DNA from: a virus
Taxonomy: Duplodnaviria; Heunggongvirae; Uroviricota; Caudoviricetes
Virus record (IMG/VR): IMGVR_UViG_2721755498_000003
Reading direction: 5' to 3' (one strand)
DNA length: 15,362 nucleotides
The notes beneath the pieces were generated by a model that was not told the origin of the DNA, did not search any database, and saw only the letters and a program-made list of their open reading frames with translations. The translations under genes were made by a program, and so were the position numbers. Below are positions 20 through 14,967 of this stretch, piece after piece (the stretch's first letter is position 1; each line of letters begins with the position of its first letter).

Positions 20-1315
20 TTAATTTTTCATTGCTTCGTTATGGGGCATGGTTGGGGCAAACTCGCTTAACTGTGTATTTAACAAAGCTACCTGTGCATT
101 ATTGTTTTCAGACATCCATTTTCCGTATACCTGAAATACCATTTGCGCATTTGCATGGCCCATCTGGTTTGCTATAAATGCCGGGTTAGCACCAGCTGTC
201 AGCGACCAGCAGGCATAAGTATGTCTCGACTGATATGATTTTCGATGGCGGAGTCCGGCACGTTTTATCGCTGCGTCCCACATCTGCCTTATTGAGTCAA
301 CGGTAAAATGGTCACCATAATTTTTTACTCTCGCTGACACTTCAGGTTGAAAAACAAAGGTGCATTTTTGTTTTTCTGTTCTGCCATACTCTCTGAGGTG
401 AACATCAATGATATGCTCTTTGCTCAGTCTCGTTAATGTCATCTGACTCCGGAGAGCGTCGATTGCTGGCTTAATAAGATGAATGACCCGATTGGTTCCC
501 GCCTGTGTTTTTGGTACCGTGAAACGGTCTTTTGCTAAATTTCTCCTGATCATCATTGTTCCATTTTTCAGATCTATGTCCTCCCATCCAAGTGCACACA
601 GCTCACCAGGGCGAACGCCAGTATAAACAGAAACACACCATAAATTTTTTGCTTGCTGATTTCTGCACGCATCGATAAGACGGATAAATTCCTCCCGCGA
701 AAGAGGATCCGGAATGGTTCTTGATTCCTTTAATGGCGAGATCCCCTTAAACGGATTATCTGCCAGGTAACCGTTATCAACACCAAACTGGAACACGGCG
801 TTAAGATTTGTCATGTAATTATTTACAGTTACAGCCGATCTCCCTGGTTGTGTAACAATATAGTTACTTTTGGGGATCTGGTATCCAGTCAGTAGCTCTT
901 TACGAACCTCCAGTAATTTTTCTTTATTAATCGATGAGGCAAGATTTTTTTCACCGATTATGCTCAGGATATTTTTGATGACGGCACGGTATGTGTTGAG
1001 TGATGTTTTGGCGACTTCAGTTTCTTTCAGTGCCAGAAATTTTTCAGCCAGTTCTTTTATGGTTAAATCTTGTCGGGCCTCACCAAATTTTTCCAGATTG
1101 CGTGAGGAGGGAAACTGTTTTGCATAGTCGAAAACACCAGTTTTTATTGCGTAACAAACAGAGGAGCGTAGTTCACCTGCAACGCGCCTGTTTTTTGCTG
1201 TGTCAGGAACCCCCAGATTTTCCCTGACTCTTACGCCTTTATAAACAAACCAGATACGTAATTTCCCTCCATGGTTTTCCACGCCTGTCGGATATTTCAT
1301 TTCAACTTCTCTCAT
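20..1315 (-). CDS. Phage tyrosine integrase (site-specific recombinase)
   Basis: 431-aa ORF at the prophage end. C-terminal region carries the tyrosine-recombinase signature (...SRHTYACW... then ...MGHANAQMVFQVYGKW..., i.e. R/H-x-x-R box and GH...Y catalytic tyrosine, like lambda Int LGHKSDTMASQY). Followed on the same strand by a small xis-like gene. The 3' end abuts the window start, so the att site should lie just left of position 20. Confidence 0.9.
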   Translation of the reverse strand: MREVEMKYPTGVENHGGKLRIWFVYKGVRVRENLGVPDTAKNRRVAGELRSSVCYAIKTGVFDYAKQFPSSRNLEKFGEARQDLTIKELAEKFLALKETEVAKTSLNTYRAVIKNILSIIGEKNLASSINKEKLLEVRKELLTGYQIPKSNYIVTQPGRSAVTVNNYMTNLNAVFQFGVDNGYLADNPFKGISPLKESRTIPDPLSREEFIRLIDACRNQQAKNLWCVSVYTGVRPGELCALGWEDIDLKNGTMMIRRNLAKDRFTVPKTQAGTNRVIHLIKPAIDALRSQMTLTRLSKEHIIDVHLREYGRTEKQKCTFVFQPEVSARVKNYGDHFTVDSIRQMWDAAIKRAGLRHRKSYQSRHTYACWSLTAGANPAFIANQMGHANAQMVFQVYGKWMSENNNAQVALLNTQLSEFAPTMPHNEAMKN

Positions 1316-1334
1316 TAGTTAGTGTGGCTTTTAG

Positions 1335-1586
1335 TTAAGTAAGATGACGTCTTGGTCTCGCTGATGCCTGGCGCTCAATCCAGCGATCAATTTCTTCCAG
1401 GTTGTAAAAGCATGGACTGTTATCCCATGGCATACCGTCATGAGCGACATGCTTATATTCCCTTCCTTCCATAAACGATTTTTCCCGGGCCTTTTTTAAC
1501 GTACCTTTTTTTATTCCTTTCAGCGCAATTAACTGCTCTTCGGATACCCATTTGCCGGGAGAGACAATCATGATTACTTCGCTCAT
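1335..1586 (-). CDS. Excisionase-like small protein (Xis-type directionality factor)
   Basis: 83-aa ORF immediately upstream of int on the same strand with a 19-nt gap; basic C-terminus (RQASARPRRH). Size and position are typical of lambdoid xis. Function assigned mainly by context. Confidence 0.6.
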   Translation of the reverse strand: MSEVIMIVSPGKWVSEEQLIALKGIKKGTLKKAREKSFMEGREYKHVAHDGMPWDNSPCFYNLEEIDRWIERQASARPRRHLT

Positions 1587-1658
1587 CGATTTCTTTATCT
1601 CTTACATCAGACGAGCGCCGGTTGCAGAATACCAGTCACAACCGGCGACAGTTGAACA

Positions 1659-4130
1659 TTAAGAATCAGCCTGACTCGGGATCAGTTTTTGCCAGATAAC
1701 TGAAACGTATTTTGCCTGGTAACGGGCGTCATCAAGTGCATTATGGCGCTCACCTTCGAATGGAATAGCCGTTCTGGCATCGAAGTCTATGGCTTTCCCC
1801 AGCTCAACGATTGTGCGTACATCGCGATCGTTGTAGTAACGCCACGGGCAGGGGATCCCCTGCCGTTCGTATGAACGGCGCAAAATCGTGTTGTCGAAGT
1901 TGGCTCCATTTCCCCAAACCTGAACAAAAAATTCACCGGAGTTTTCGTCGATAAATTCCCGCAATTGTAACAGTGCATCATCTAACGGGATTTCATCGGT
2001 CATAATGGCAGATTGCGCTTCGCGTGATTGCTTAAGCCACCATTTAATGGTGTCCCGATCAATGACTCCGCCAGCAGTTTCCAGATCGATAGTCTTACTA
2101 TATTCCGGTCCCATATCTCCGGTTTGCGGATCGAAAAATATTGCACCTATTGAGATGATCGGGGCATCAGGATTTTTTCCCATGGTTTCAAGGTCGATCA
2201 TTAGATGGTCACACGTCCTGCTGGTGGATGTGATTTCGTGATGACCGTTCACCTTAATTGGGTGATCTGCCGTCTCGCCAGTTTCATTATCGCTATTGTG
2301 ATGCTGATTGCCGCCAGTGTTCTCCTTGTGTGGATGTTCAGCGCCTTCCATTTCCTCCGGATCATCTTCCTGAACTTCAACCTGATACTCTTCATCGAAT
2401 GTTTCTTGGTATGTTGCGTCGCCCATCACCGCGCCACAATCAGGGCAGTTGCCGCCGCCGGTCTGACCGCAGGCGGTGCAGACTTTTTCCACTTCCTGTT
2501 GCGCCACTGGTTCAGGCTGTTTCGTTTCTGGCTCGTTTTGTAACGCATTTGGACTGTTTTGTTCCGCTTTTTGGTAGTTCCGTTCCGATTCATGCTGGTT
2601 CTGGTTCACAGAATCGCGGGTCTGGATCCCCTTAACCCATTTCGGATCATTCGGGTCACTAATCCCTTCAACAAATTCACCACGTGATGCAGCAAGCAAC
2701 TTATCGGCGTCAGGCTGGCTGATATTGGCTGCCTGCATAATTTTGTTTACTTCGTCAGCGGTAACTTTTATCGGCTCTGGTTGTTCTGAATCTTCAGCGG
2801 TATCTACATTTTGCGGTAAGCCCGTGTATGTGCCATTTTTTCGGGCAAAATATTCTTCTTTTGTGATTTCAGTGGCGCCAGCAGCCAGTGCCTTATCCAG
2901 ACCAGAAAGTTTGTTTGCGCGACCGTATTTTTCTCCGTCCTTATCTGCGAAGAGGAAATAGAACGGCCCCTCACGCTCTACAGATGGTTCAGCTTCCGGC
3001 GCGGTTTCATTTTTTGGGATATCAGATACCTCAGTTTCCACTGCATCAGTTTGTGTTTCTGATGACTGGAGAACATCAACAGTGCCCAGGTCTGTTTCTT
3101 CATTCTCAAACACGCCCTTTGTCGTCAGGTATTCGCAGATATATTTGTTCAGTGCTATGGGATCTTTGTGAATGTCGATCGGACGCTCACGGACAAGGCC
3201 AAAAATAGTCTGGCGGTCGTAGCGAAGGGCATCAGGCTGTTTGCGCATTGATGCCGAGATACGCTTCCAGTCTTCGCGGTCGTTGTCGATAACTTCTTTT
3301 TTTGCCCAGCGATGGATGCTGCCGTCAATGTTTCCGGCATCCACATCACCAGGCCAGAGAGCGTAGGCCAGTTCGTCATCCAGTGTTTTCCATGTCTGCT
3401 TGTATTCGCGATGAATGGCAGCAATGACCGGGCTGATTTTTCCTGTTGAATTTTCAGTGTACTGTTGATTGGTTCTGGCGCGGGCGAGATCAACAACAGA
3501 CGTGTATTTTCCGGTTTCCTTGCGTTCACCTTCGCGACGTTTTTTCCAGATGCGCATCTCTGCCTGAATTTCGGGCCATTTAGCACCAGGAATACATTTA
3601 TGCTTAACCCACCCAATGGCGTGCAACTTAAGCTCCGGATACATGGCGTTAACTTCTGGCATTTTCATCAACGCTTCAACGATATGTCCGTCGAATGTTG
3701 CCATGTCTTCCTGCAACAATTCCTGTGCGCTAATAACCATATCAACGGTGATGTTTTCACATGTGTCGAACTTAACCATGACAGCGTTCTGTACTTCAGG
3801 GGCCAGCTTGTCAAAAGTGACGTTCATCGGATCGGATTCAGTCTCAACCGGGACAAAAGAAGCAGACTCCTCATCCCAGCGGTTTTCCTGCATATATTCA
3901 GCATCCCATGAATCGAGGGCAGGGCGGGGTATGCCAGGTTTATCCTCGCAGACAATAAATTTATAAGCGCAGTCCTGAGCAGCCGGATAATGTTCCAGGA
4001 ACTGCCAGTGAAATTTTGCTCGAGCACGGCGTTCGTCGCCAGCTTCAATGGCTGTGGCTACAGCCACAGCGCCTTCTTCCCTTGTTGCCAGTTCGTCAGG
4101 AATAGCGGCGCAAATAAAGACTTTACTCAT
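1659..4130 (-). CDS. RecE-like exodeoxyribonuclease VIII-family protein with C-terminal DnaQ-like DEDDh 3'-5' exonuclease domain
   Basis: 823-aa ORF with GAGG RBS upstream of the ATG at 4128-4130. Central segment KLLAASRGEFVEGISDPNDPKWVKGIQTRD matches the conserved RecE core as I recall it. C-terminal ~180 aa carry DEDDh motifs (HLMIDLETMG ... FDNT ... HNALDDARYQ). Long Asp/Glu-rich linkers and a C-x2-C-x7-C-x2-C zinc ribbon (CTACGQTGGGNCPDC, nt 2436-2480). Confidence 0.8.
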   Translation of the reverse strand: MSKVFICAAIPDELATREEGAVAVATAIEAGDERRARAKFHWQFLEHYPAAQDCAYKFIVCEDKPGIPRPALDSWDAEYMQENRWDEESASFVPVETESDPMNVTFDKLAPEVQNAVMVKFDTCENITVDMVISAQELLQEDMATFDGHIVEALMKMPEVNAMYPELKLHAIGWVKHKCIPGAKWPEIQAEMRIWKKRREGERKETGKYTSVVDLARARTNQQYTENSTGKISPVIAAIHREYKQTWKTLDDELAYALWPGDVDAGNIDGSIHRWAKKEVIDNDREDWKRISASMRKQPDALRYDRQTIFGLVRERPIDIHKDPIALNKYICEYLTTKGVFENEETDLGTVDVLQSSETQTDAVETEVSDIPKNETAPEAEPSVEREGPFYFLFADKDGEKYGRANKLSGLDKALAAGATEITKEEYFARKNGTYTGLPQNVDTAEDSEQPEPIKVTADEVNKIMQAANISQPDADKLLAASRGEFVEGISDPNDPKWVKGIQTRDSVNQNQHESERNYQKAEQNSPNALQNEPETKQPEPVAQQEVEKVCTACGQTGGGNCPDCGAVMGDATYQETFDEEYQVEVQEDDPEEMEGAEHPHKENTGGNQHHNSDNETGETADHPIKVNGHHEITSTSRTCDHLMIDLETMGKNPDAPIISIGAIFFDPQTGDMGPEYSKTIDLETAGGVIDRDTIKWWLKQSREAQSAIMTDEIPLDDALLQLREFIDENSGEFFVQVWGNGANFDNTILRRSYERQGIPCPWRYYNDRDVRTIVELGKAIDFDARTAIPFEGERHNALDDARYQAKYVSVIWQKLIPSQADS

Positions 4131-4223
4131 TTTGTTTTAACCTCATGACAGATTTAAGGATGAACAAATCCCTGCCATTGCTGGCATATAAGAATGAAAC
4201 CGGATATTTATTACGGAACTGTT

Positions 4224-4415
4224 TTAAAGACCTGCCGGGATTTCGATATTATCCTGGTGAATAACTTTATCGACCGGGTAACAGTTACCGGGAATTTTCT
4301 GTTCGGTTGCTGCAGTCATACACTCCTGCATTGTCCTGTGCACACTGACTGCAATATCAACTGGCTCTCCGGAAACAAGAAAAACTGTCAGAACAAGCAC
4401 AAATGCTGAATTCAT
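4224..4415 (-). CDS. ydfD: Small lysis protein YdfD (63 aa) with N-terminal hydrophobic segment
   Basis: Start chosen at the internal ATG (4413-4415) that gives MNSAFVLVLTVFLVSGEPVD..., matching Qin YdfD as I recall it. This ATG overlaps the dicB stop in an ATGA arrangement, suggesting translational coupling. The six-frame ORF extends to 4469 but that extension lacks an RBS. Confidence 0.7.
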   Translation of the reverse strand: MNSAFVLVLTVFLVSGEPVDIAVSVHRTMQECMTAATEQKIPGNCYPVDKVIHQDNIEIPAGL

Positions 4416-4600
4416 TGTGCACATCCTTTTGGCATCAGACGTAAACGAGCCAGCATTGAAACAATGCATATTTTATTTAATAGCTCCCGTTCTTGTTTTC
4501 TCTTGTTAATGGCATCTTCAGTAAATACTGGGTTACTGATAGTGACACCAATTTCAAAACAACCTTCAGACGTATTAACGTTTGGTAATAACGTTTTCAT
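4412..4600 (-). CDS. dicB: Cell-division inhibitor DicB (62 aa)
   Basis: Internal Met of ORF 4412..4705 gives MKTLLPNVNTSEGCFEIGVTISNPVFTEDAINKRKQERELLNKICIVSMLARLRLMPKGCAQ, which I recognise as DicB. GAGG RBS lies about 9 nt upstream. Located downstream of DicF in the same operon, as in Qin. Confidence 0.8.
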   Translation of the reverse strand: MKTLLPNVNTSEGCFEIGVTISNPVFTEDAINKRKQERELLNKICIVSMLARLRLMPKGCAQ

Positions 4601-4769
4601 TATCGCGTCCTCAACAATGAATTTTGTGATGCAGTGCCTGGTGCCTCCAGGTGACGTTAACCAGTTAACAATTAACGCCGGATACAGAGAATCCACCCAT
4701 AACACTGTTTTTGGTTTTAACTGTTCCGCGTGCGCTCAGCCGCATTCACCACATCACAAAATTCACTTT

Positions 4770-4827
4770 AAAAAGGGCGGCAGAGCAGTCACGGAGTAAA
4801 ACTGATACCGCCAAACGTCACCAGAAA
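4770..4827 (-). ncRNA. dicF: DicF small regulatory RNA (ftsZ-targeting sRNA) with intrinsic terminator
   Basis: Minus-strand sequence TTTCTGGTGACGTTTGGCGGTATCAGTTTTACTCCGTGACTGCTCTGCCGCCCTTTTT matches the DicF RNA as I recall it. It ends in a GGCGG...CCGCC hairpin followed by a T-run. Lies between ydfC and dicB. Confidence 0.8.
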
Positions 4828-5167
4828 ATTGATAACAGAGGGCGTTGCAGCGGGGTTGTCACTTAAGCGTATGGTCAACCTGACAACCCGGTGTCCTCAA
4901 CGGGGAAGGAATAACCTCGCCATACTTACCGCCGCGCCATTTCGCGGGTTGCCACAACCGGAAGCGCACGGTCGACGAAAATTTAACGACAGGCTATCTA
5001 TGAACCAGCTACCTCGCCGTGCGCTTTCGCGTTATGGTCTGACTTTTCAGGGAAATATCCTTTCAGTAAACTGTCAGTGCCGGATGCTCACCCGTGTCCG
5101 GCGCACGCACTCCACCTCACCCGTGGAGAACTCCTTAATTACTAACCTTAGCTTTGTTGATTAGCTA

Positions 5168-5386
5168 CTAACGCGGGTATGTAATCATTCTGGCAATGCT
5201 TAATGCCGCTGCTTTTTCCAGATTGGTGATATCCTGCTCCAGAGCGGACAGATTTTCAGCCTGCTTAGCCCTGGTTTCATTGGCCCATTTCAAATCCTGC
5301 GCTGCATTAATTTTCTGGCGCATCCACTCATAAAGTTCATCATCGGTATAGTCTGGCGCGATGATGACGGGTTCTCGTTTCTGCAT
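5168..5386 (-). CDS. ydfC: YdfC-like small protein (72 aa)
   Basis: 72-aa ORF (MQKREPVIIAPDYTDDELYEWMRQKINAAQDLKWANETRAKQ...) with GAGG RBS 8 nt upstream. Position in the ydfABC-dicF-dicB operon as in Qin. Confidence 0.7.
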   Translation of the reverse strand: MQKREPVIIAPDYTDDELYEWMRQKINAAQDLKWANETRAKQAENLSALEQDITNLEKAAALSIARMITYPR

Positions 5387-5415
5387 ACTGATTCCTCGCG
5401 GTGCTGTTTCGCTTA

Positions 5416-5544
5416 TCAGCCGTTAGATTTTGCCGAACTGGAAAGCGCCTGTTTAAATTCGTTGAAGCTGAGAGCTTCTTCGCCGTCGGCAAGACCTTCG
5501 AAGTATTCTTCGTAAGCCTTTTCCATGATTGTGTCGAAATCCAT
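5416..5544 (-). CDS. ydfB: YdfB-like small acidic protein (42 aa)
   Basis: Not in the six-frame track because it is under 60 aa. Hand translation of the minus strand gives MDFDTIMEKAYEEYFEGLADGEEALSFNEFKQALSSSAKSNG then TGA. AGGT-type RBS 7 nt upstream; the start lies 1 nt after the ydfA stop. An in-frame upstream ATG at 5584-5586 would add 14 aa (MVPVAGWKETQVSD) overlapping ydfA. Confidence 0.6.
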   Translation of the reverse strand: MDFDTIMEKAYEEYFEGLADGEEALSFNEFKQALSSSAKSNG

Positions 5545-5545
5545 A

Positions 5546-5701
5546 TCACTCACCTGGGTTTCTTTCCAGCCAGCGACGGGCACCATTTTCGGTTTTAAAC
5601 GTTTTGCTTTTGGTATACGTCATCGCGGTGAACGTACCGTCCTGGTTGGGGAACACGCCACATACCAGAGATTCGCTGTTGCCAAGATCGATAGTATCCA
5701 T
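5546..5701 (-). CDS. ydfA: YdfA-like small protein (51 aa)
   Basis: Start chosen at the internal ATG (5699-5701) giving MDTIDLGNSESLVCGVFPNQDGTFTAMTYTKSKTFKTENGARRWLERNPGE, with GAGG RBS 5 nt upstream. The longer six-frame ORF to 5755 has no RBS. First gene of the dicB operon. Confidence 0.6.
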   Translation of the reverse strand: MDTIDLGNSESLVCGVFPNQDGTFTAMTYTKSKTFKTENGARRWLERNPGE

Positions 5702-5780
5702 GCTGACCTCATTTCCCCTTAACGCCGGGGTAGCGGAACTGTTTGCTGAGAACACCGTGCGGTGTCTTGATGGAAAATAA

Positions 5781-5834
5781 TTTAGAATAACCTAACATGA
5801 GAGGCAAGTGTTTTTTGTTAGATTGATCTAACAA
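5781..5834 (-). promoter_or_regulatory. Promoter/operator region of the ydfABC-dicF-dicB operon (P_dicB analogue) with palindromic repressor operator
   Basis: Near-perfect palindrome TTGTTAGA-TTGA-TCTAACAA at 5815-5834, plus a degenerate second site at about 5781-5798 (TTTAGA...CTAACA). On the minus strand a TTGCCT -35-like hexamer sits between the two sites. Located between the dicA stop and the ydfA start. Confidence 0.5.
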
Positions 5835-5869
5835 AAAGGGTGGGCGCAACTAATCACTTGAAAAGAATG

Positions 5870-6277
5870 TTATTTTATTGATTTATTTTTACGCGCTTTA
5901 AGCATTTCTTCGAAGAGTTTGTTGAAGTTTTCTACTCTTGCGCGCATTTCAGACAGCAAGGCTTCCTGCTCGGAAGATGGAAGAGCATCGAATAATTCGA
6001 TCAATTCTTTGTGGTTGGGAGTTAGCTCTGTTTCCACATGAAGTTCTTGTGCAGGCACTGGTGCCTTGTCTTCGTCACCAAACATTAGCCATGTAGGTGA
6101 GCACTTCAGAGCATCCGCTAAAGCAAACAATCGTTTTCCGACTGGCTGGGTTTCGTCTCTTTCCCATTGTGAAATTGTGACGTGAGCAACTCCAGCGAGG
6201 CGCGCGGCTTCTCGTTGTGTTAAGCGTAATTCTTTTCGTCGCGCCAGAACTCGCTGGCCCAGGGTTCTTGTATCCAT
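5870..6277 (-). CDS. dicA: DicA-like repressor (XRE/cI-type HTH N-terminus, DicA-type C-terminus)
   Basis: 135-aa ORF. HTH region LTQREAARLAGVAHVTISQWERDETQP. C-terminal motifs CSPTWLMFGDEDK and EMRARVENFNKLFEEMLKAR are recognisably DicA-like, but the N-terminal half is diverged from my recollection of K-12 DicA. Divergent from a Cro-like gene. Confidence 0.8.
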   Translation of the reverse strand: MDTRTLGQRVLARRKELRLTQREAARLAGVAHVTISQWERDETQPVGKRLFALADALKCSPTWLMFGDEDKAPVPAQELHVETELTPNHKELIELFDALPSSEQEALLSEMRARVENFNKLFEEMLKARKNKSIK

Positions 6278-6299
6278 AGTTAGGTAATTCTAATTTTTC

Positions 6300-6344
6300 T
6301 TGACTTAGGTATCCCGCGCACAATAATGTTAGAAAAGTCTAACA
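6300..6344 (+). promoter_or_regulatory. Rightward early promoter (P_dicC, pR analogue) with overlapping operator
   Basis: -35 TTGACT (6300-6305), 16-nt spacer, -10 AATAAT (6322-6327). The palindrome TGTTAGA-AAAG-TCTAACA (6327-6344) overlaps the -10 and start site. On the opposite strand a TAGAAT -10-like element sits 12 nt before the dicA ATG, suggesting a nearly leaderless repressor transcript. Confidence 0.55.
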
Positions 6345-6358
6345 AGAGGGGGGCTTTG

Positions 6359-6586
6359 ATGCTTAAAGTTGACGCAATTACTTTTTTTGGCAGCAAAACA
6401 AAGCTTGCCAATGCCGCAGGAGTGAGGCTGGCAAGTGTTGCTGCTTGGGAGATACTGGTTCCTGAAGGTCGCGCGATGCGTCTACAGGAGGCATCTGGCG
6501 GGGAGCTTCAGTATGATCCCAAAGTTTATGATGAATATCGTAAGACGAAGCGGGCGGGGCGGTTGAACAATGAAAATCACTCCTGA
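6359..6586 (+). CDS. dicC: DicC/Cro-like small regulator (75 aa)
   Basis: Start at the internal ATG 6359 (MLKVDAITFFGSKTKLANAAGVRLASVAAW...) preceded by a GAGGGG RBS. The six-frame ORF starts at 6326 inside the operator. Divergent from dicA, in the Cro position of the switch. Confidence 0.7.
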   Translation: MLKVDAITFFGSKTKLANAAGVRLASVAAWEILVPEGRAMRLQEASGGELQYDPKVYDEYRKTKRAGRLNNENHS

Positions 6587-7091
6587 ACAGGCTCGTGAGG
6601 CTCTGGATGCCTGGATATGTCGACCAGGAATGACACAGGAGCAGGCGACGATATTAATCACTGAAGCATTCTGGGCTTTGAAAGAGCGCCCGAACATCGA
6701 TGTTCAGCGTGTCACAGATGAAGGTGGCGCGGTTGATCAGCGAGCGCTTGGTGTTAATCGAGTGAAGATATTCGAACGCTGGAAGGCTATCGACACCAGG
6801 GATAAGCGTGAAAAGTTCACGGCGCTAGTGCCTGCGATTATGGAGGCTATCCGGATTAGTGATTTCAGGTTGTATCGTGAAATTACTGACGGAAAAAGCA
6901 TCACGTGCATGATCGCCGGGTTAAACAAAGAATATGGCGATGTGGTGGAGTCCGGACTGCTTTTTGCTGATCCTGCCGTAGTGGATCGTGAAACTGACGA
7001 ACTTATAGAAAAAGCAATTGCTTTCAAGCTTGCGTATCGACAGCAATACCAACAAAAAGCTGGATGGAATTATGAGCCTTCTTTTTGCTGA
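6570..7091 (+). CDS. YdaT/CII-like early regulatory protein (putative)
   Basis: 173-aa ORF overlapping the dicC end by 17 nt. It sits in the position occupied by cII/YdaT-family genes in lambdoid prophages. Function is inferred from context and weak recollection of the family. Confidence 0.5.
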   Translation: MKITPEQAREALDAWICRPGMTQEQATILITEAFWALKERPNIDVQRVTDEGGAVDQRALGVNRVKIFERWKAIDTRDKREKFTALVPAIMEAIRISDFRLYREITDGKSITCMIAGLNKEYGDVVESGLLFADPAVVDRETDELIEKAIAFKLAYRQQYQQKAGWNYEPSFC

Positions 7092-8037
7092 ACGCCCACT
7101 GGTTATAAACACGCAGCTGGCAATGAAAATTGGCTTAAACGAAGCCATTGTTTTGCAACAACTGCACTACTGGTTGAGAGATACCAACTCCGGCATGGAA
7201 TGTGATGGTGTTCGCTGGATTTATAACACAACGGAACAATGGCTGGAACAGTTCCCATTCTGGTCAGAGTCAACGTTAAAGCGCGCGTTTGCAAGTCTGA
7301 AAACGCTGGGGCTTTTGCGTTGTGAAAAGCTCAATAAATCAAAGCGCGATATGACCAATTTCTACACGATCAACTATGGGAGCGAGCTTTTAGATGGTGG
7401 CAAATTGAGCGAATCCATCGGTTCAAAATGCGCCGCTCCATCAGGTCAAAATGACACGATGGAAGAGGTCAAAATGAAACGCTCCATTGGTTCAAAACGA
7501 CCCAATGTCATCGGGTCAAAATGGCCTGATGATCTTACAGAGAATACAACAGAGATTACTACAGAGAATAAAAACACTTTTCGTCCGGAAGCTTCGCAAC
7601 CGGACCCGCAGACGACTGAACAGGATTCTTTAACCCGGAACTCCGACGCGGTTGTGTTTAGTGCGAAAAAACGCCAGTGGGGTAGCAGGGAGGATTTGGC
7701 GTGTGCGCAGTGGATCTGGGGGCGGATCGTGGGTCTCTACGAACAGGCAGCCAGTGATGATGGCGAGATCATGCGACCAAAAGAGCCTAACTGGACTGCC
7801 TGGGCCAATGACGTGCGCACAATGCGGATGCTGGATGGCAGAAGCCACAGACAAATTTGCGAAATGTTTGGTCGGGTTCAGCGAGATCCATTCTGGGTAA
7901 AAAACATCATGAGCCCGTCAAAGCTCCGCGAAAAATGGGACGAACTGGTCATCCGCCTGGGACGTTCACCTGTACAGCGTTGTGTTAATCATATTTCTGA
8001 ACCGGATACAGAAATTCCGTCTGGTTTCAGAGGATAA
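7072..8037 (+). CDS. Replication initiator, lambda O-like (origin-binding) protein
   Basis: Start taken at ATG 7072 (MSLLFAERPLVINTQLAMKIGLNEAIVLQQLHYWL...); the six-frame ORF uses an upstream TTG at 7018. Tandem iterons lie inside the coding sequence and give a repeated SIGSK/IGSK peptide motif, as in lambda O, where ori sits inside the gene. Located after the cro/cII-like genes. Confidence 0.7.
   Translation: MSLLFAERPLVINTQLAMKIGLNEAIVLQQLHYWLRDTNSGMECDGVRWIYNTTEQWLEQFPFWSESTLKRAFASLKTLGLLRCEKLNKSKRDMTNFYTINYGSELLDGGKLSESIGSKCAAPSGQNDTMEEVKMKRSIGSKRPNVIGSKWPDDLTENTTEITTENKNTFRPEASQPDPQTTEQDSLTRNSDAVVFSAKKRQWGSREDLACAQWIWGRIVGLYEQAASDDGEIMRPKEPNWTAWANDVRTMRMLDGRSHRQICEMFGRVQRDPFWVKNIMSPSKLREKWDELVIRLGRSPVQRCVNHISEPDTEIPSGFRG
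7417..7573. repeat. Putative phage origin of replication: five iterons plus AT-rich tandem repeats
   Basis: GGT(T)CAAAA(T/C)G cores start at 7420, 7444, 7467, 7489 and 7514 (spacing 22-25 bp), each with internal dyad symmetry (e.g. GTCAAAATGAC). They are followed by three 12-bp-period repeats ACAGAGA(A/T)TA at 7537, 7549 and 7561 in an AT-rich stretch, consistent with a DNA-unwinding element. Confidence 0.7.
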
Positions 8038-8077
8038 GTGTTGATTTCAGGTCATGAGGTAATTTTAAGGGGGACTT

Positions 8078-8500
8078 GTGGCAAAAGTTTTTACACAAGA
8101 AGAGCGGGAAAAAATTAAATGGCAGGTGGTGGAACTCGTGCGCCAGAGCGGCCGTGAGACGTTACGGCAACTGGAAGCTAAAACAGGTGCGACTAGATAT
8201 CTGATGAGCGTTCTTGCCAGAGAGCTGGTAGCCAGTGGCGATGTATACAACTCCGGCTACGGGTTATTCCCCTCTGAACAGGCGCGTAAGGACTGGCAAA
8301 ACGCCCGCAAAAAACTCTCGAGGGCAAAGGTGAAGAAACCTGCTGTGGTTGATCCGGACCTTATCTGGTCATCACCTGACGGAGAAATACGTCGCTACGA
8401 CAGTCGCCTAAACATAATCTGTCGCGAGTGCCGGAAGAGCGAAGTTATGCAGCGCATACTGGCTTTCTATCAGGGTAATTTTCAGGACGTGGCGCAGTGA
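8078..8500 (+). CDS. Hypothetical phage protein (140 aa), possible winged-helix DNA-binding protein
   Basis: GTG start at 8078 with a strong RBS (TAAGGGGGA) 4 nt upstream. Its stop overlaps the start of the next ORF in a GTGA arrangement. No motif I can assign with confidence. Confidence 0.6.
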   Translation: MAKVFTQEEREKIKWQVVELVRQSGRETLRQLEAKTGATRYLMSVLARELVASGDVYNSGYGLFPSEQARKDWQNARKKLSRAKVKKPAVVDPDLIWSSPDGEIRRYDSRLNIICRECRKSEVMQRILAFYQGNFQDVAQ

Positions 8501-8853
8501 GTGCACCGGCAACCATTCTTGATATGTGCTGTGGCAGCCGCATGTTCTGGTTCGATAAGTCTGACAAACGGGCGATATTCAGCGATATCAGAAAAGAAGG
8601 ATACACATTACGCAATGGGAGACGCTTGATTATCAGCCCTGACATTATCGCAGATTTTCGTGCATTATCATTTGCAGACGCATCTTTTTCGATGGTTGTA
8701 TTAGACCCTCCGCATCTTGAGCGTGTTGGTGATAACGCCTGGATGGGAAAGAAATATGGACGGCTGAATAAAGATGCCTGGCGTGATGATTTGCGACAGA
8801 GATTTAAAGAAGCTTTTCGGGTGTTGAGGCCGCACGGCGTTCTGATTTTTTAA
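8497..8853 (+). pseudogene. Beta-class N6A/N4C DNA methyltransferase, N-terminal fragment (3'-truncated)
   Basis: FSMVVLDPPHLERVGDNAW...RFKEAFRVLRPHGVLIF matches the beta-class layout (hydrophobic run, DPPY-type motif, then RVLKPGG-type motif), with His replacing the usual aromatic residue. The ORF stops 3 codons after that motif. No FxGxG AdoMet-binding region follows in any frame. Confidence 0.5.
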
Positions 8854-9115
8854 TGGAATGAAACGCAAATACCGGTAAGCCAGATTCTGGCACTGACAGA
8901 TAGAAAGCCTGTTATCTGTCAACGAACAGGGAAAAAACGATAAAACCCACTGGATTATTTTTATGAAAGAGGCATCCAGTGAGTAGATTCGTAAGGTTAC
9001 AGATACGTATATCTGAATAATTAAATTCAGTTCTGTAAATAAAACTTAATCCTTAACCGGATGGATTTCTGCACCCTCAGAACATCAGGAGGCCGCCCGA
9101 AAGGGCGGTAGTGAA

Positions 9116-9757
9116 ATGCGAAAGTTCAAAATTATTATTGAAACGGAAATAGCTGGTGGAGATTTTGAGGATGTATTCGAAGTGGACGATAACGCAACAC
9201 CTGATGAAATTCATGACGGAGCATAAGAAATTTTCTTTAACTACTGCAATTACTCATACCACGAAATAAAAGACGATGAGGAAGAACAAAGTGGCTGATT
9301 TTTGTTCAGCTAAATATAACATCAGTTTTGAAGAGCGGGATGAACTATTAATGGACTATGGTGAATTACGCGGTGGAAGTGCTGCTGATGTCGAATCCTA
9401 GCGTGATGACTATGAAGCGGGAAAAACTCCGGTCGAAGCATATTGTGATGAGTGGGGCGATGAATGAGCGAGATTAATTATCAGGAAGGGCATGAAACGG
9501 CGGGGCAAGCAAAACCAGTGGCATGGCGATATCGCTACGTGAAAAAAGCGTTACGGACTTTCAGGGGAAGTAGTGGTCTGGTGACTGGAAATATGTACCG
9601 AAAAAAGAGGATTGTAACGACAGGCCGAACTATCAAATTCAGGCCTTATTCACTGCCTCACCAGTCCCGGTTACATCAGAAGAACTGGTTAAAGCTGTGC
9701 ACTTTTATGAACAACTAAAACGCGAAAATCCACCAACATCCGGCAACTAGATTAATG
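9116..9757 (+). pseudogene. Frameshifted/interrupted remnants of small acidic phage ORFs
   Basis: Protein-like reading frames are split by stops and frame changes: 9116-9226 (MRKFKIIIETEIAGGDFEDVFEVDDNATPDEIHDGA), an in-frame continuation to 9298, 9276-9401, 9464-9718, and a +1 frame reading ...DWKYVPKKEDCNDRPNYQIQALFTASPVPVTSEELVKAVHFYEQLKRENPPTSGN ending at 9750. Confidence 0.3.
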
Positions 9758-10004
9758 GATTAACTATGTCGGTTAAACGACCAGCCAACTGAAAAAGCGG
9801 AAACCTGATTACAGGTTGCCAGATAAGGCAATGAGCTACCTGGCGCGGAACGGACTGATAAGTATGGGGAATGTTTTACGATGAACCTTTAGACTAAAGA
9901 GTTTGTAACGCTATGTAAGTGATTTTTTCTGGTTTAGATGTTTATATGTCCGGCCAAATTGAGGTGTGTTTAAATGTAATTGCACATTGATTGTAGGAGG
10001 AATA

Positions 10005-10184
10005 ATGAAAAACGCATTGCAGTTTTTGTTTGTTGCGTTCTGGTTGTTCGCATCATGTATGCCCATCATCTTCACAGCAAGGTATATGGAAAAAGTTGAT
10101 GTTTTGATATTAATATTTGGATATATAAATGCCCTTTTTTTAGGGGTGTTCATGGCGGTCATGTGCATTGAATACTGGCGGTAA
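10005..10184 (+). CDS. Small hydrophobic membrane protein (59 aa, two predicted TM segments)
   Basis: Start at ATG 10005 with a strong RBS (TAGGAGG) 4 nt upstream. Translation MKNALQFLFVAFWLFASCMPIIFTARYMEKVDVLILIFGYINALFLGVFMAVMCIEYWR. AT-rich codon usage unlike the flanking phage genes. Confidence 0.45.
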   Translation: MKNALQFLFVAFWLFASCMPIIFTARYMEKVDVLILIFGYINALFLGVFMAVMCIEYWR

Positions 10185-10518
10185 ATACAGCGAACTCCAT
10201 TGGTTTAGTTGGATATTTACTGTGCTGGACAAAAACGGTTTGCGGGGAAATCTTAGTTAAGTAGAATGACTGCGGGTGCTTGAGGCTATCTGCCTCGGGC
10301 ATGGACACCAACGGCAGATAGAGAAAAGCCCCAGTTAACATTACGCGTCCTGCAAGACGCTTAACATTAATCTGAGGCCAATTTCATGCTAGACACATGT
10401 AGGTTAGCCTCTTACGTGCCGAAAGGCACGGAGAAGCAGGCTATTGTTAACACCAAGCTGTAATGTCCCCTTTGAACCATTCTAAAATGTCCCCAGACAA
10501 TTCTCTGGGGGATTTTTC

Positions 10519-11859
10519 ATGATCAAAGAGACTGTTACGATGAGTCATAAGGAACTCCACCGACTTCAGATTATTCAGGAGTCAATTAATCGACATATTA
10601 CTCAGGAACAAGCTGCGGCACGCATTGGCATTTCTATTCGGCAGGTTAAACGTCTGGTGCAACGGTATAGAAATGAAGGGCCTTCTGGTCTGGTTTCCCA
10701 CCGACGTGGAAAGCGTCCTAATAATTCCTTTTCTACTGAATTCAGAGCAACAGTAATTTCACTCCTCAAAGGCCGTTACGCTGATTTTGGACCTACGTTT
10801 GCGTGCGAAAAATTGCGCGAGATACACGGTTTATCTTTATCCGTTGAAACTCTCAGAAAGTGGATGATAGAAGAGGGGTTATGGCGTGAACGCCGTCGTA
10901 AAATTGCCCGTATATATCAACGCCGCATGCGACGACCATCTTACGGTGAACTGATCCAGATTGATGGCTCACCTCATGACTGGTTTGAAAATCGAGGCCC
11001 CAGATGTACACTGATCGTTTTCATTGATGATGCCACCAGTGCGTTGATGGCGTTGCGTTTTGTGCCTGCTGAAACAACCCGGGCTTACATGGAAACCCTC
11101 CGGGGTTACCTTAATGATCATGGCGTACCGCTCGCTCTCTACTCTGATAGACACAGTATATTCAGGGTAAATAACCCAGAGCGGGAAGGTGAGCTGACCC
11201 AGTTCACTCGTGCGATAAAGACACTGGGCATCGAGCCAATCCATGCCAACAGCCCGCAGGCAAAAGGGCGGGTAGAGCGCGCCAATCAGACACTACAGGA
11301 CAGGCTGGTCAAAGAAATGCGGCTTCAGAATATCAGTGATATTGAAACAGCAAATGCATGGTTGCCGACCTTTATTGAAGCCTATAACAACCGGTTCGCT
11401 ACGTCGCCTCGTACTACTGATAATGCTCATCTTGATGTGCACCATTCTGAAGAGGAACTGGGTTATATCTTCAGCCTACAGGCGAAGCGCGTTCTGTCTA
11501 AAAATCTCACTTTCCAGTACAAAAGCAGTGCGTTTCAGGTACGCAGTGAGAGCCGGGGATATCGACTTAGGCATTCGGTTGTTACTGTATGCGAGAACTT
11601 TGACGGTGAAATTAACGTTCTGTATGACGGGAAAGCGCTGGGCTGGGAAAAGTATGTTGATGGCCCGGAGCCTATACCACTGGATGATGAAAAGAGTGTC
11701 CATGAACGAGTGGATAATGCCCGTATTGATTTACGCTCAAAATACTATGTTAAACCTAAAGCTGACCATCCCTGGCTTACGCGCCGAACGCAAAGTCATC
11801 AGCAAGTTAAGCCCCCGAAGTTACCTAAAAAGAAGCCTGATCCCGATAAAAAAGATTGA
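10519..11859 (+). CDS. DDE transposase with N-terminal HTH and rve-type integrase core (single-ORF IS, ISNCY/IS1202-like)
   Basis: 446-aa ORF with RBS GGGGGA 7 nt upstream. HTH region QEQAAARIGISIRQVKRLV. Catalytic triad candidates: D in IQIDGSPHDW, D in LYSDRHSIF, E in KGRVERANQTLQ. Basic Lys/Pro-rich C-terminal tail. Family assignment is from memory, not a search. Confidence 0.85.
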   Translation: MIKETVTMSHKELHRLQIIQESINRHITQEQAAARIGISIRQVKRLVQRYRNEGPSGLVSHRRGKRPNNSFSTEFRATVISLLKGRYADFGPTFACEKLREIHGLSLSVETLRKWMIEEGLWRERRRKIARIYQRRMRRPSYGELIQIDGSPHDWFENRGPRCTLIVFIDDATSALMALRFVPAETTRAYMETLRGYLNDHGVPLALYSDRHSIFRVNNPEREGELTQFTRAIKTLGIEPIHANSPQAKGRVERANQTLQDRLVKEMRLQNISDIETANAWLPTFIEAYNNRFATSPRTTDNAHLDVHHSEEELGYIFSLQAKRVLSKNLTFQYKSSAFQVRSESRGYRLRHSVVTVCENFDGEINVLYDGKALGWEKYVDGPEPIPLDDEKSVHERVDNARIDLRSKYYVKPKADHPWLTRRTQSHQQVKPPKLPKKKPDPDKKD

Positions 11860-14130: not shown

Positions 14131-14382
14131 ATGATGAACATCGAAGAACTGCGTAAAATTTTTTGTGAAGATGGCCTCTATGCTGTGTGCGTTGAAAATG
14201 GAAATATTGCTAGTCATTACCGCATTGTGTGTTTGCAAAAAAATGGGGCTGCGTTAATTAATTATGTGGATGCCCGAGTGACGGACGGATTTATCTTGCG
14301 CGACGGTGAGTTTGTCACTTCATTACAGGCATTAAAAGAGATCGGAATAAAAGCTGGCTTTTCTGCTTTTTCAGAAGAATAA
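14131..14382 (+). CDS. rem: Rem-like small protein (83 aa)
   Basis: 83-aa ORF in the position of rem downstream of hokD in Qin. Identity is by size, order and recollection. Confidence 0.55.
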   Translation: MMNIEELRKIFCEDGLYAVCVENGNIASHYRIVCLQKNGAALINYVDARVTDGFILRDGEFVTSLQALKEIGIKAGFSAFSEE

Positions 14383-14448: not shown

Positions 14449-14967
14449 ATGGCACGCAACGCAAAATATTACAATCATGATAATTCGACCGTTCTTGCCC
14501 ACACGCACGAGCGGTATTCTCACGCATTTAAGTCAGACTGGTACCAGCATCCCCCATGCACTGAAGAACAGGCCGAATGGCTCATTCAGTGTTACCGCAG
14601 GCGCGGATGCGAGGTTAAAAAAGCCCTTAGCCTCGACTACCGTCACTGGATAATCTCCGTCAGGCTTCCTTACTCCGAACGCCCACCGCGTCCGTCCCGC
14701 ACATTCCAGCAACGCATCTGGAGGTAACGTGCGGGTATTACTTCGACCTGTTCTGGTATGCCAGCCGACGATCCGCATCATCTGATTGGTCACGGGCAGG
14801 GCGGAATGGGAACCAAAGCACATGATCTCTTTGTGTTGCCTTTGTGCAGAAAGCATCACGACGAGTTGCATACGGATACCGTGGCATTTGAAGAGAAGTA
14901 TGGCTCCCAACTGGAGCTGATTTTTCGATTTATCGATCGCGCGCTGGCAATTGGTGTGCTGGCCTAA
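14449..14967 (+). pseudogene. DUF968/HNH-like protein (YdfU-type) interrupted by an in-frame TAA
   Basis: ORFs 14449..14727 and 14758..14967 are in the same frame, separated by one TAA at 14728-14730. The downstream part carries the HNH-like motif DDPHHLIGHGQGG...LPLCRKHHDELH. GGAG RBS before 14449; none before the ATG at 14758. Confidence 0.5.

Follow-up and report, generated by a model that had tools for sequence, protein, structure and literature searches.

[quoted passage not shown] Previously, DicA has been established experimentally as the repressor of the operon promoter dicBp. Deletion of dicA raises dicBp activity 22-fold, and the Qin-encoded antirepressor Rem relieves DicA repression and induces the operon (PMC10448788). 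RNase III and RNase E release the small RNA DicF from the operon transcript (PMC10448788), and its 3′ end arises by Rho-independent termination (PMC5069750; PMC10448788). Together with Hfq, DicF represses ftsZ, xylR, pykA, and manX (PMC5069750; PMC10448788); the conservation of the operon and the targets of DicF are covered in PMC5069750. Furthermore, DicF accumulates without induction in stationary phase (PMC10448788). DicB recruits MinC to the septum, and DicB together with MinC also inhibits ManYZ, thereby blocking the entry of lambda DNA (PMC6832061; PMC10448788). The best-documented benefit of DicB is indeed the exclusion of incoming phage (PMC6832061). YdfD, a 63-aa protein, binds IspG; the lysis it causes requires ongoing division and is prevented by co-expressed DicB or SulA (PMC8835842). 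The suppression of YdfD lysis by DicB goes back to Masuda 2016, as cited in PMC8835842.

A parallel to this operon, in position and logic, is Kil of the lambda pL operon; no sequence relationship between the two is claimed. Lambda Kil, like KilR of the Rac prophage, is a small inhibitor of the FtsZ ring, encoded in a repressor-controlled early-left operon upstream of the recombination and xis-int genes. The direct target of Kil is FtsZ/ZipA, and DicB works via MinC instead. Besides, we know of no DicF-like sRNA or YdfD in lambda.

The DNA analysed here is a stretch of 15,362 nucleotides (hereafter the window) from the IMG/VR virus record IMGVR_UViG_2721755498_000003. Judged by its sequence, the region 4224..4827 is certainly the well-studied dicF–dicB–ydfD cassette for division inhibition and lysis known from the Qin prophages of E. 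coli, real but ordinary. Its three components are textbook Qin genes, and as a discovery this already known module matters little. The original prediction had placed dicF, dicB, and ydfD here as an intact module, at limits that are exactly those of the K-12 annotation transferred to the window. Both the placement and the intactness hold; the strand, on which the prediction was silent, is the minus strand for all three genes. In the alignment with MG1655 Qin, 650 of the 651 nucleotides of window 4200..4850 (minus strand) are identical. The sole difference, at window position 4341, is a synonymous GTG versus GTT change in Val25 of ydfD. The substitutions in the DicF seed, in DicB, or in YdfD that would have refuted the prediction are thus absent. 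DicF matches the experimentally validated K-12 RNA at 53 of 53 nucleotides, seed regions included, and DicB and YdfD match their K-12 counterparts at 62 of 62 and 63 of 63 residues, respectively. Taken with the nucleotide alignment, these identities exclude a chance match.

The family searches agree with the alignment. The DicF covariance model RF00039 (gathering score 48) matched 4826..4775 on the minus strand over all of its 52 positions (1-52 of 52; 76.7 bits, E 8.7e-16), and the K-12 annotation transfers dicF to 4827..4775. Residues 1-62 of the 62-residue DicB matched both PF05358 (136.8 bits, cutoff 27) and NF049927 (132.8 bits, cutoff 100). YdfD matched PF07358 (DUF1482; 91.1 bits, cutoff 25); in the NCBIfam profile search, no model matched it. 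No evidence contradicts the identification of the three genes, and the weak points concern mechanism. As a whole, we are highly confident that the region is best explained as the distal half of a dicBF operon (ydfA-ydfB-ydfC-dicF-dicB-ydfD), the early-left operon (pL type) of a lambdoid prophage of the Qin family, controlled by a DicA-family repressor, with K-12-like RNA processing and K-12-like action of DicF, DicB, and YdfD. The RNA processing and all molecular activities in this reading are carried over from K-12 experiments by way of sequence identity.

Table 1. Coordinates of the cassette, its operon, and the neighbouring control and recombination genes in the window.
Feature	Coordinates	Strand	Basis
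Tyrosine integrase (int), intact	20..1315	-	PF12167 and PF00589
Excisionase (xis)	1335..1586	-	PF06806, 108 bits; PGAP annotation
823-aa exonuclease, next gene downstream of ydfD	1659..4130	-	PF16473, K-12 comparison
ydfD, 63-aa lysis protein	4224..4415	-	PF07358, K-12 identity
ATGA, overlap of ydfD start and dicB stop	4412..4415	-	Direct reading of the sequence
dicB, 62-aa cell division inhibitor	4412..4600	-	PF05358, NF049927, K-12 identity
dicF-dicB spacer (dicB 5′ UTR), 174 nt	4601..4774	-	Identical to K-12
dicF, 53-nt DicF sRNA	4775..4827	-	Rfam RF00039 and identity to K-12 b1574
Long untranslated ydfC-dicF region, DicF precursor	4828..5167	-	~99% K-12 identity, 4 substitutions
ydfC	5386..5168	-	PGAP name in CFSAN064036; K-12 alignment
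ydfB	5544..5416	-	PGAP name in CFSAN064036; K-12 alignment
ydfA	5701..5546	-	PGAP name in CFSAN064036; PF07151; K-12 alignment
Candidate dicBp, pL-like, TTGCCT-17-TAAATT	5779..5807	-	Aligns with K-12 TTGACC-17-TAATCT
Operator-like site, 2 mismatches	5780..5797	.	Pattern search and inverted repeats I1/I2
Operator TGTTAG-N6-CTAACA, perfect	5816..5833	.	Pattern search and inverted repeats I1/I2
DicA-family repressor (CI/C2 analogue)	5870..6277	-	NF007257, 224.7 bits vs cutoff 101
Operator-like site, 3 mismatches, dicA-dicC intergenic	6278..6295	.	Pattern search
Operator, perfect, dicA-dicC intergenic	6327..6344	.	Pattern search
DicC/Cro-like regulator, divergent from dicA	6359..6586	+	NF007282, 163.6 bits; PF14549 P22_Cro
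rem, DicA antirepressor	14131..14382	+	PGAP name in a 99.8%-identical relative

The terminator hairpin that had been claimed for DicF is present. In both the minimum free energy and the centroid structures of DicF, the 5′ part is single-stranded and a stem-loop forms on the 3′ side (4812..4776); a UUUUU run (4774..4770) comes after it. The stem is interrupted, which is why a simple terminator scan made no call at the DicF 3′ end. The folding-energy z-score of −1.39 is not significant on its own. DicF was paired with K-12 ftsZ (−80 to +40), the host's own ftsZ lying outside the window, and the best duplex (−38.5 kcal/mol) spanned the Shine-Dalgarno sequence and the AUG; 65 of 500 shuffles reached that energy, so the duplex gives no evidence over and above the identity with the validated K-12 RNA. 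Nucleotides 1-52 of DicF are unchanged across six loci, namely the window, K-12, and the phages Tritos, mEp460_ev081, vB_EcoM-606R7, and PPompW_699. The distance from the DicF 3′ end to the dicB ATG is 174 nt, so that the predicted 170 nt was right, and K-12 and the four phages each differ from this spacer by at most four substitutions. When 4100..5900 was scanned permissively with Rfam for further structured RNAs (antitermination elements, for instance), only DicF and a sub-threshold match of STnc100 (RF02076) came up. The latter is a full-length match to the dicF-dicB spacer at 4568..4777 (minus strand), scoring 34.4 bits (E 2.5e-5), below the gathering score of 47. This similarity suggests that the Salmonella 'sRNA' STnc100 may be a homologous dicB-type 5′ UTR of a prophage.

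As had been predicted, the TGA of dicB and the ATG of ydfD share the tetranucleotide ATGA, read 4415..4412. The 4-nt overlap is kept at all six loci named above, with GTGA in place of ATGA at the junction of PPompW_699. Its conservation supports a functional constraint on the dicB/ydfD junction, and from it we infer that translation of ydfD may be coupled to that of dicB. Since an AAGGA Shine-Dalgarno motif lies within dicB, 8 nt upstream of the ydfD start, independent initiation of ydfD is possible as well, and coupling thus keeps the standing of an inference. Between PPompW_699 (1501..2101) and window 4827..4224, DicF, the spacer, and the early part of dicB are about 95% identical. In the PPompW/Stx-associated phages, the 3′ half of dicB and the entire ydfD are far more divergent from the window. 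Conservation is higher in the noncoding DNA upstream than in the coding sequence. This pattern points to a possible recombination breakpoint inside dicB in these phages.

The claim of repressor control is borne out by the gene context. A DicA-family gene lies upstream of the operon, and operators flank the pL-like promoter as in K-12. The small genes ydfA, ydfB, and ydfC (5168..5701) are the promoter-proximal genes of the operon. The candidate dicBp agrees with the consensus at 8 of 12 positions, which falls below the threshold of the promoter scan, and the scan did not report it; its position would correspond to that of the K-12 promoter. The perfect operator nearest to it lies just upstream of the candidate −35 hexamer, and the site with two mismatches lies between the −35 and −10 hexamers. 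Altogether, four TGTTAG-N6-CTAACA sites mirror the positions of the four K-12 sites. The entire window contains ten such sites, a count matched by 10 of 200 shuffles, and both zero-mismatch sites fall in the two control regions. A spacing of eight nucleotides (TGTTAG-N8-CTAACA) was also tried and rejected, as it gave nothing relevant; the correct spacing is 6 nt. LexA boxes (CTGT-N8-ACAG, 1 mismatch) were found neither in the immunity region nor ahead of rem, and their number in the search was at chance level, giving no evidence for direct SOS control.

High identity to K-12 ends near 5762, and between that point and about 6458 it drops to about 60% at the DNA level, i.e., a different immunity allele in which the operator half-sites are kept. 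Because the repressor is just 57% identical to K-12 DicA (75/132, BLASTP), its sensitivity to Rem and its operator affinity are assumed here. Despite the divergence, the shared half-sites make cross-immunity with K-12 Qin possible.

The transcript had also been proposed to continue into exo-xis-int. The downstream gene order exonuclease-xis-int is as proposed; a single transcript running through these genes is not supported, and northern blots in K-12 showed ydfABC-dicF and ydfABC-dicFB-ydfD but nothing longer that includes ydfE (PMC10448788). The ydfD-exonuclease spacer differs from that of K-12 by a single A within an A-run. A terminator scan of this spacer gave only a weak 5-bp hairpin (4186..4173), and its fold is no better than that of shuffles (z −0.22), which demonstrates neither a terminator nor read-through. 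Protein profile searches found no gene for an N-like antiterminator. In the improbable scheme given below for excision-competent Qin-family phages, the highly conserved untranslated regions between ydfC and dicF and between dicF and dicB could hold a cis-acting element for read-through past the DicF terminator into dicB-ydfD, and perhaps into exo-xis-int, one that works without a recognisable N gene. As to the exonuclease itself, the Rv2179c-like 3′-5′ domain of PF16473 occupies residues 642-813, and the middle part has a partial RecE-like match below the family cutoff. The enzyme termed 'exo' is not of the lambda-Exo or RecE type. The K-12 pseudogene ydfE is an N-terminal remnant of this 823-aa protein.

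The window represents the left arm of a lambdoid prophage of the Qin family, one less decayed than that of K-12. Several E. coli strains, e.g., CFSAN064036, have a chromosomal region with 99.8% identity to it, in which the element adjoins rspA/rspB, the position of Qin in K-12. The minus strand carries int, xis, the exonuclease gene, ydfD, dicB, dicF, ydfC, ydfB, ydfA, and the DicA-family repressor gene. On the plus strand, genes for a DicC/Cro-like regulator, a YdaT-like protein, an O-like protein, and a DUF977 protein, a methyltransferase remnant, and an IS1202-family transposase gene are followed by flxA, ydfV, relBE, hokD, rem, a ydfU remnant, and Q. The ATGA overlap, the dicF-dicB spacer, the operator half-sites, and the rspA/rspB neighbourhood (seen in the closest relative) are all shared with K-12 Qin. 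In contrast, ydfE and intQ of K-12 are pseudogenes, split by IS2, whereas the exonuclease, xis, and int genes are intact here. K-12 Qin is a deletion derivative that lacks the equivalents of window 1180..3363, where it has IS2E instead, and of 6850..11674; the replication-region genes present here are lost from it.

The original prediction spoke of an apparently intact prophage. This is justified in part. The left arm is intact, unlike in K-12, and int, xis, the exonuclease gene, the repressor gene, cro, and Q are all undamaged. The window also shows decay: an insertion of the IS1202 family, a hok/sok locus cut short, the remnant of a methyltransferase gene, and a deletion of about 807 bp in ydfU. 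The structural (head and tail) genes lie outside the window; in the closest relative, head genes are present together with an IS3 insertion. Three complete phage genomes, mEp460_ev081 (LR597641), Tritos (OV696610), and PhiR42_1 (PV340562), carry the module at 96-99.8% identity with the same 4-nt overlap and in the same order as here (CI/C2-like repressor, small genes, dicF, dicB, ydfD, exonuclease), in contrast to the window with its IS insertion and ydfU deletion. Strains carrying this less decayed Qin-family element could show what the cassette does in a real induction, which the crippled Qin of K-12 cannot.

If the K-12 activities apply, the cassette would work as follows. In the lysogen, the DicA-family repressor would occupy TGTTAG-N6-CTAACA operators overlapping the promoters of the operon and of the divergent dicC, and would keep the operon nearly silent. 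Derepression through the prophage's own antirepressor Rem, through a DicA/DicC bistable switch, or through stress would yield a polycistronic RNA. RNase III and RNase E would cut the long untranslated ydfC-dicF region to generate the 5′ ends of DicF, and the stem-loop and U-run would set its 3′ end through partial Rho-independent termination. DicF with Hfq would then pair with the translation-initiation region of ftsZ and with the xylR, pykA, and manX mRNAs, and the read-through transcripts would encode DicB and YdfD. DicB is expected to bind MinC and direct it to the septum in a ZipA-dependent manner, so that FtsZ rings are dismantled, and to block the ManYZ-dependent DNA entry of lambda-like phages. 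YdfD would bind IspG and cause division-dependent lysis, counteracted by DicB. Since co-expressed DicB prevents YdfD lysis, DicF and DicB should hold this lysis in check when the operon is on. For the same reason, and because the benefit of DicB is best documented for phage exclusion, DicF, DicB, and YdfD should not be regarded as three additive toxins. The proposal that the module may act as a host-takeover cassette on induction, largely anticipated in the literature, is plausible, and the module may have such a role during induction of this particular prophage. We also consider a more elaborate scheme, which we think improbable, for excision-competent Qin-family phages. There the cassette, instead of being a leftover or a module for the benefit of the host, would be a timed early-lytic device in which DicF and DicB freeze division and close ManYZ to rivals. 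Through the conserved overlap, the DicB:YdfD ratio would be set at a value leaving YdfD lysis latent, with YdfD serving as a fail-safe that kills only the cells escaping the division block.

Two alternative gene calls bear on the identification itself. The plus strand of the region is open for ORFs at 4464..4799 (111 aa), 4194..4409 (71 aa), and 4829..5164 (111 aa), and the PhiR42_1 record annotates equivalents of the first and the third as hypothetical proteins. However, long antisense frames of this kind are an expected by-product of coding DNA, and the genes called by PGAP and in the records of Tritos and K-12 are those of the minus strand. The products of these minus-strand genes match curated families over their full length, and the genes are experimentally characterised in K-12. 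We therefore rejected the antisense ORFs, whose chance of being the real genes is negligible. In the same reading frames as dicB and ydfD, longer ORFs are also open. The dicB ATG at 4600, which leads to the TGA at 4414..4412, is an internal in-phase start of a GTG-initiated ORF (4412..4705) that would give a 97-aa DicB, and mEp460_ev081 is annotated with the longer dicB; likewise, an 81-aa YdfD could start from 4469 instead of the ATG at 4415..4413, with the same ORF end at 4224. Were these the functional products, the start/stop coupling would vanish. Against this, the DicB models cover exactly the protein that begins at the internal ATG (62 of 62 residues), a GAGGA Shine-Dalgarno motif lies 7 nt before that ATG as AAGGA does before the short ydfD, and YdfD has been characterised as a 63-aa protein (PMC8835842). 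[quoted passage not shown] 1988, as cited in PMC8835842. The longer ORFs were accordingly rejected as the real genes, and we hold them to be very improbable.

The short dicB and ydfD on the minus strand being the genes, a different question is what the module is kept for. It may be a domesticated module retained for the host, through the exclusion of incoming ManYZ-dependent phages by DicB, through control of metabolism and division by DicF during stationary phase or anaerobiosis, or through filamentation under stress, in which case its presence would say nothing on takeover. We regard this as a serious possibility, at somewhat less than an even chance. The 604-nt module has matches in 4637 of the 5426 complete E. 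coli genomes (in 3778 at ≥80% coverage), with a median of two and a maximum of nine places per genome having any. It has been kept with one synonymous change in the heavily deleted Qin of K-12, which is without int, the exonuclease, and the replication genes. The protection that DicB gives against lambda infection (PMC6832061) and the accumulation of DicF in uninduced stationary-phase cells (PMC10448788) fit with such a benefit. On the other hand, the same module occupies the same pL-like position in mEp460_ev081 and Tritos, which are isolated functional temperate phages (for mEp460_ev081, PMC10448788 likewise reports these genes in a functional phage). In addition, it stands under the phage repressor/antirepressor switch, which is how early lytic genes of the kind of lambda kil look. 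In the phage collection, 39 records match the module, eight of them at ≥80% coverage, including mEp460_ev081, Tritos, and PhiR42_1. The host-benefit and the lytic-programme readings are not mutually exclusive.

Several smaller observations concern the phage records and the decayed part of the window. In PhiR42_1 (PV340562), the annotation of 5268..6208 is without dicB and dicF and calls two antisense ORFs instead, which is probably a mis-annotation. A literature search on the origin of this phage (ECOR13) found no paper describing it. The ydfU gene (DUF968; ~14729..14967) lacks about 807 bp, with the junction near 14755..14758 at a 4-bp microhomology. The missing segment is present in all close relatives, including CFSAN064036 and PhiR42_1, and the contiguous junction was not found among the best matches listed from the 5426 complete E. 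coli genomes; the deletion is either private to this element or an assembly artefact. A full-length match to the sok/hok leader (RF01794, 104 bits) lies at 10274..10445 on the plus strand, with no hok ORF after it. An IS1202/ISEsa1-family transposase ORF (446 aa; 10519..11859, plus strand) starts about 70 nt past this leader, and from this arrangement the hok/sok locus looks as if it had been truncated by the IS insertion. In K-12, the gene named 'ydfW' is equivalent to the C-terminal end of the same IS1202-family transposase ORF (window 11709..11858).
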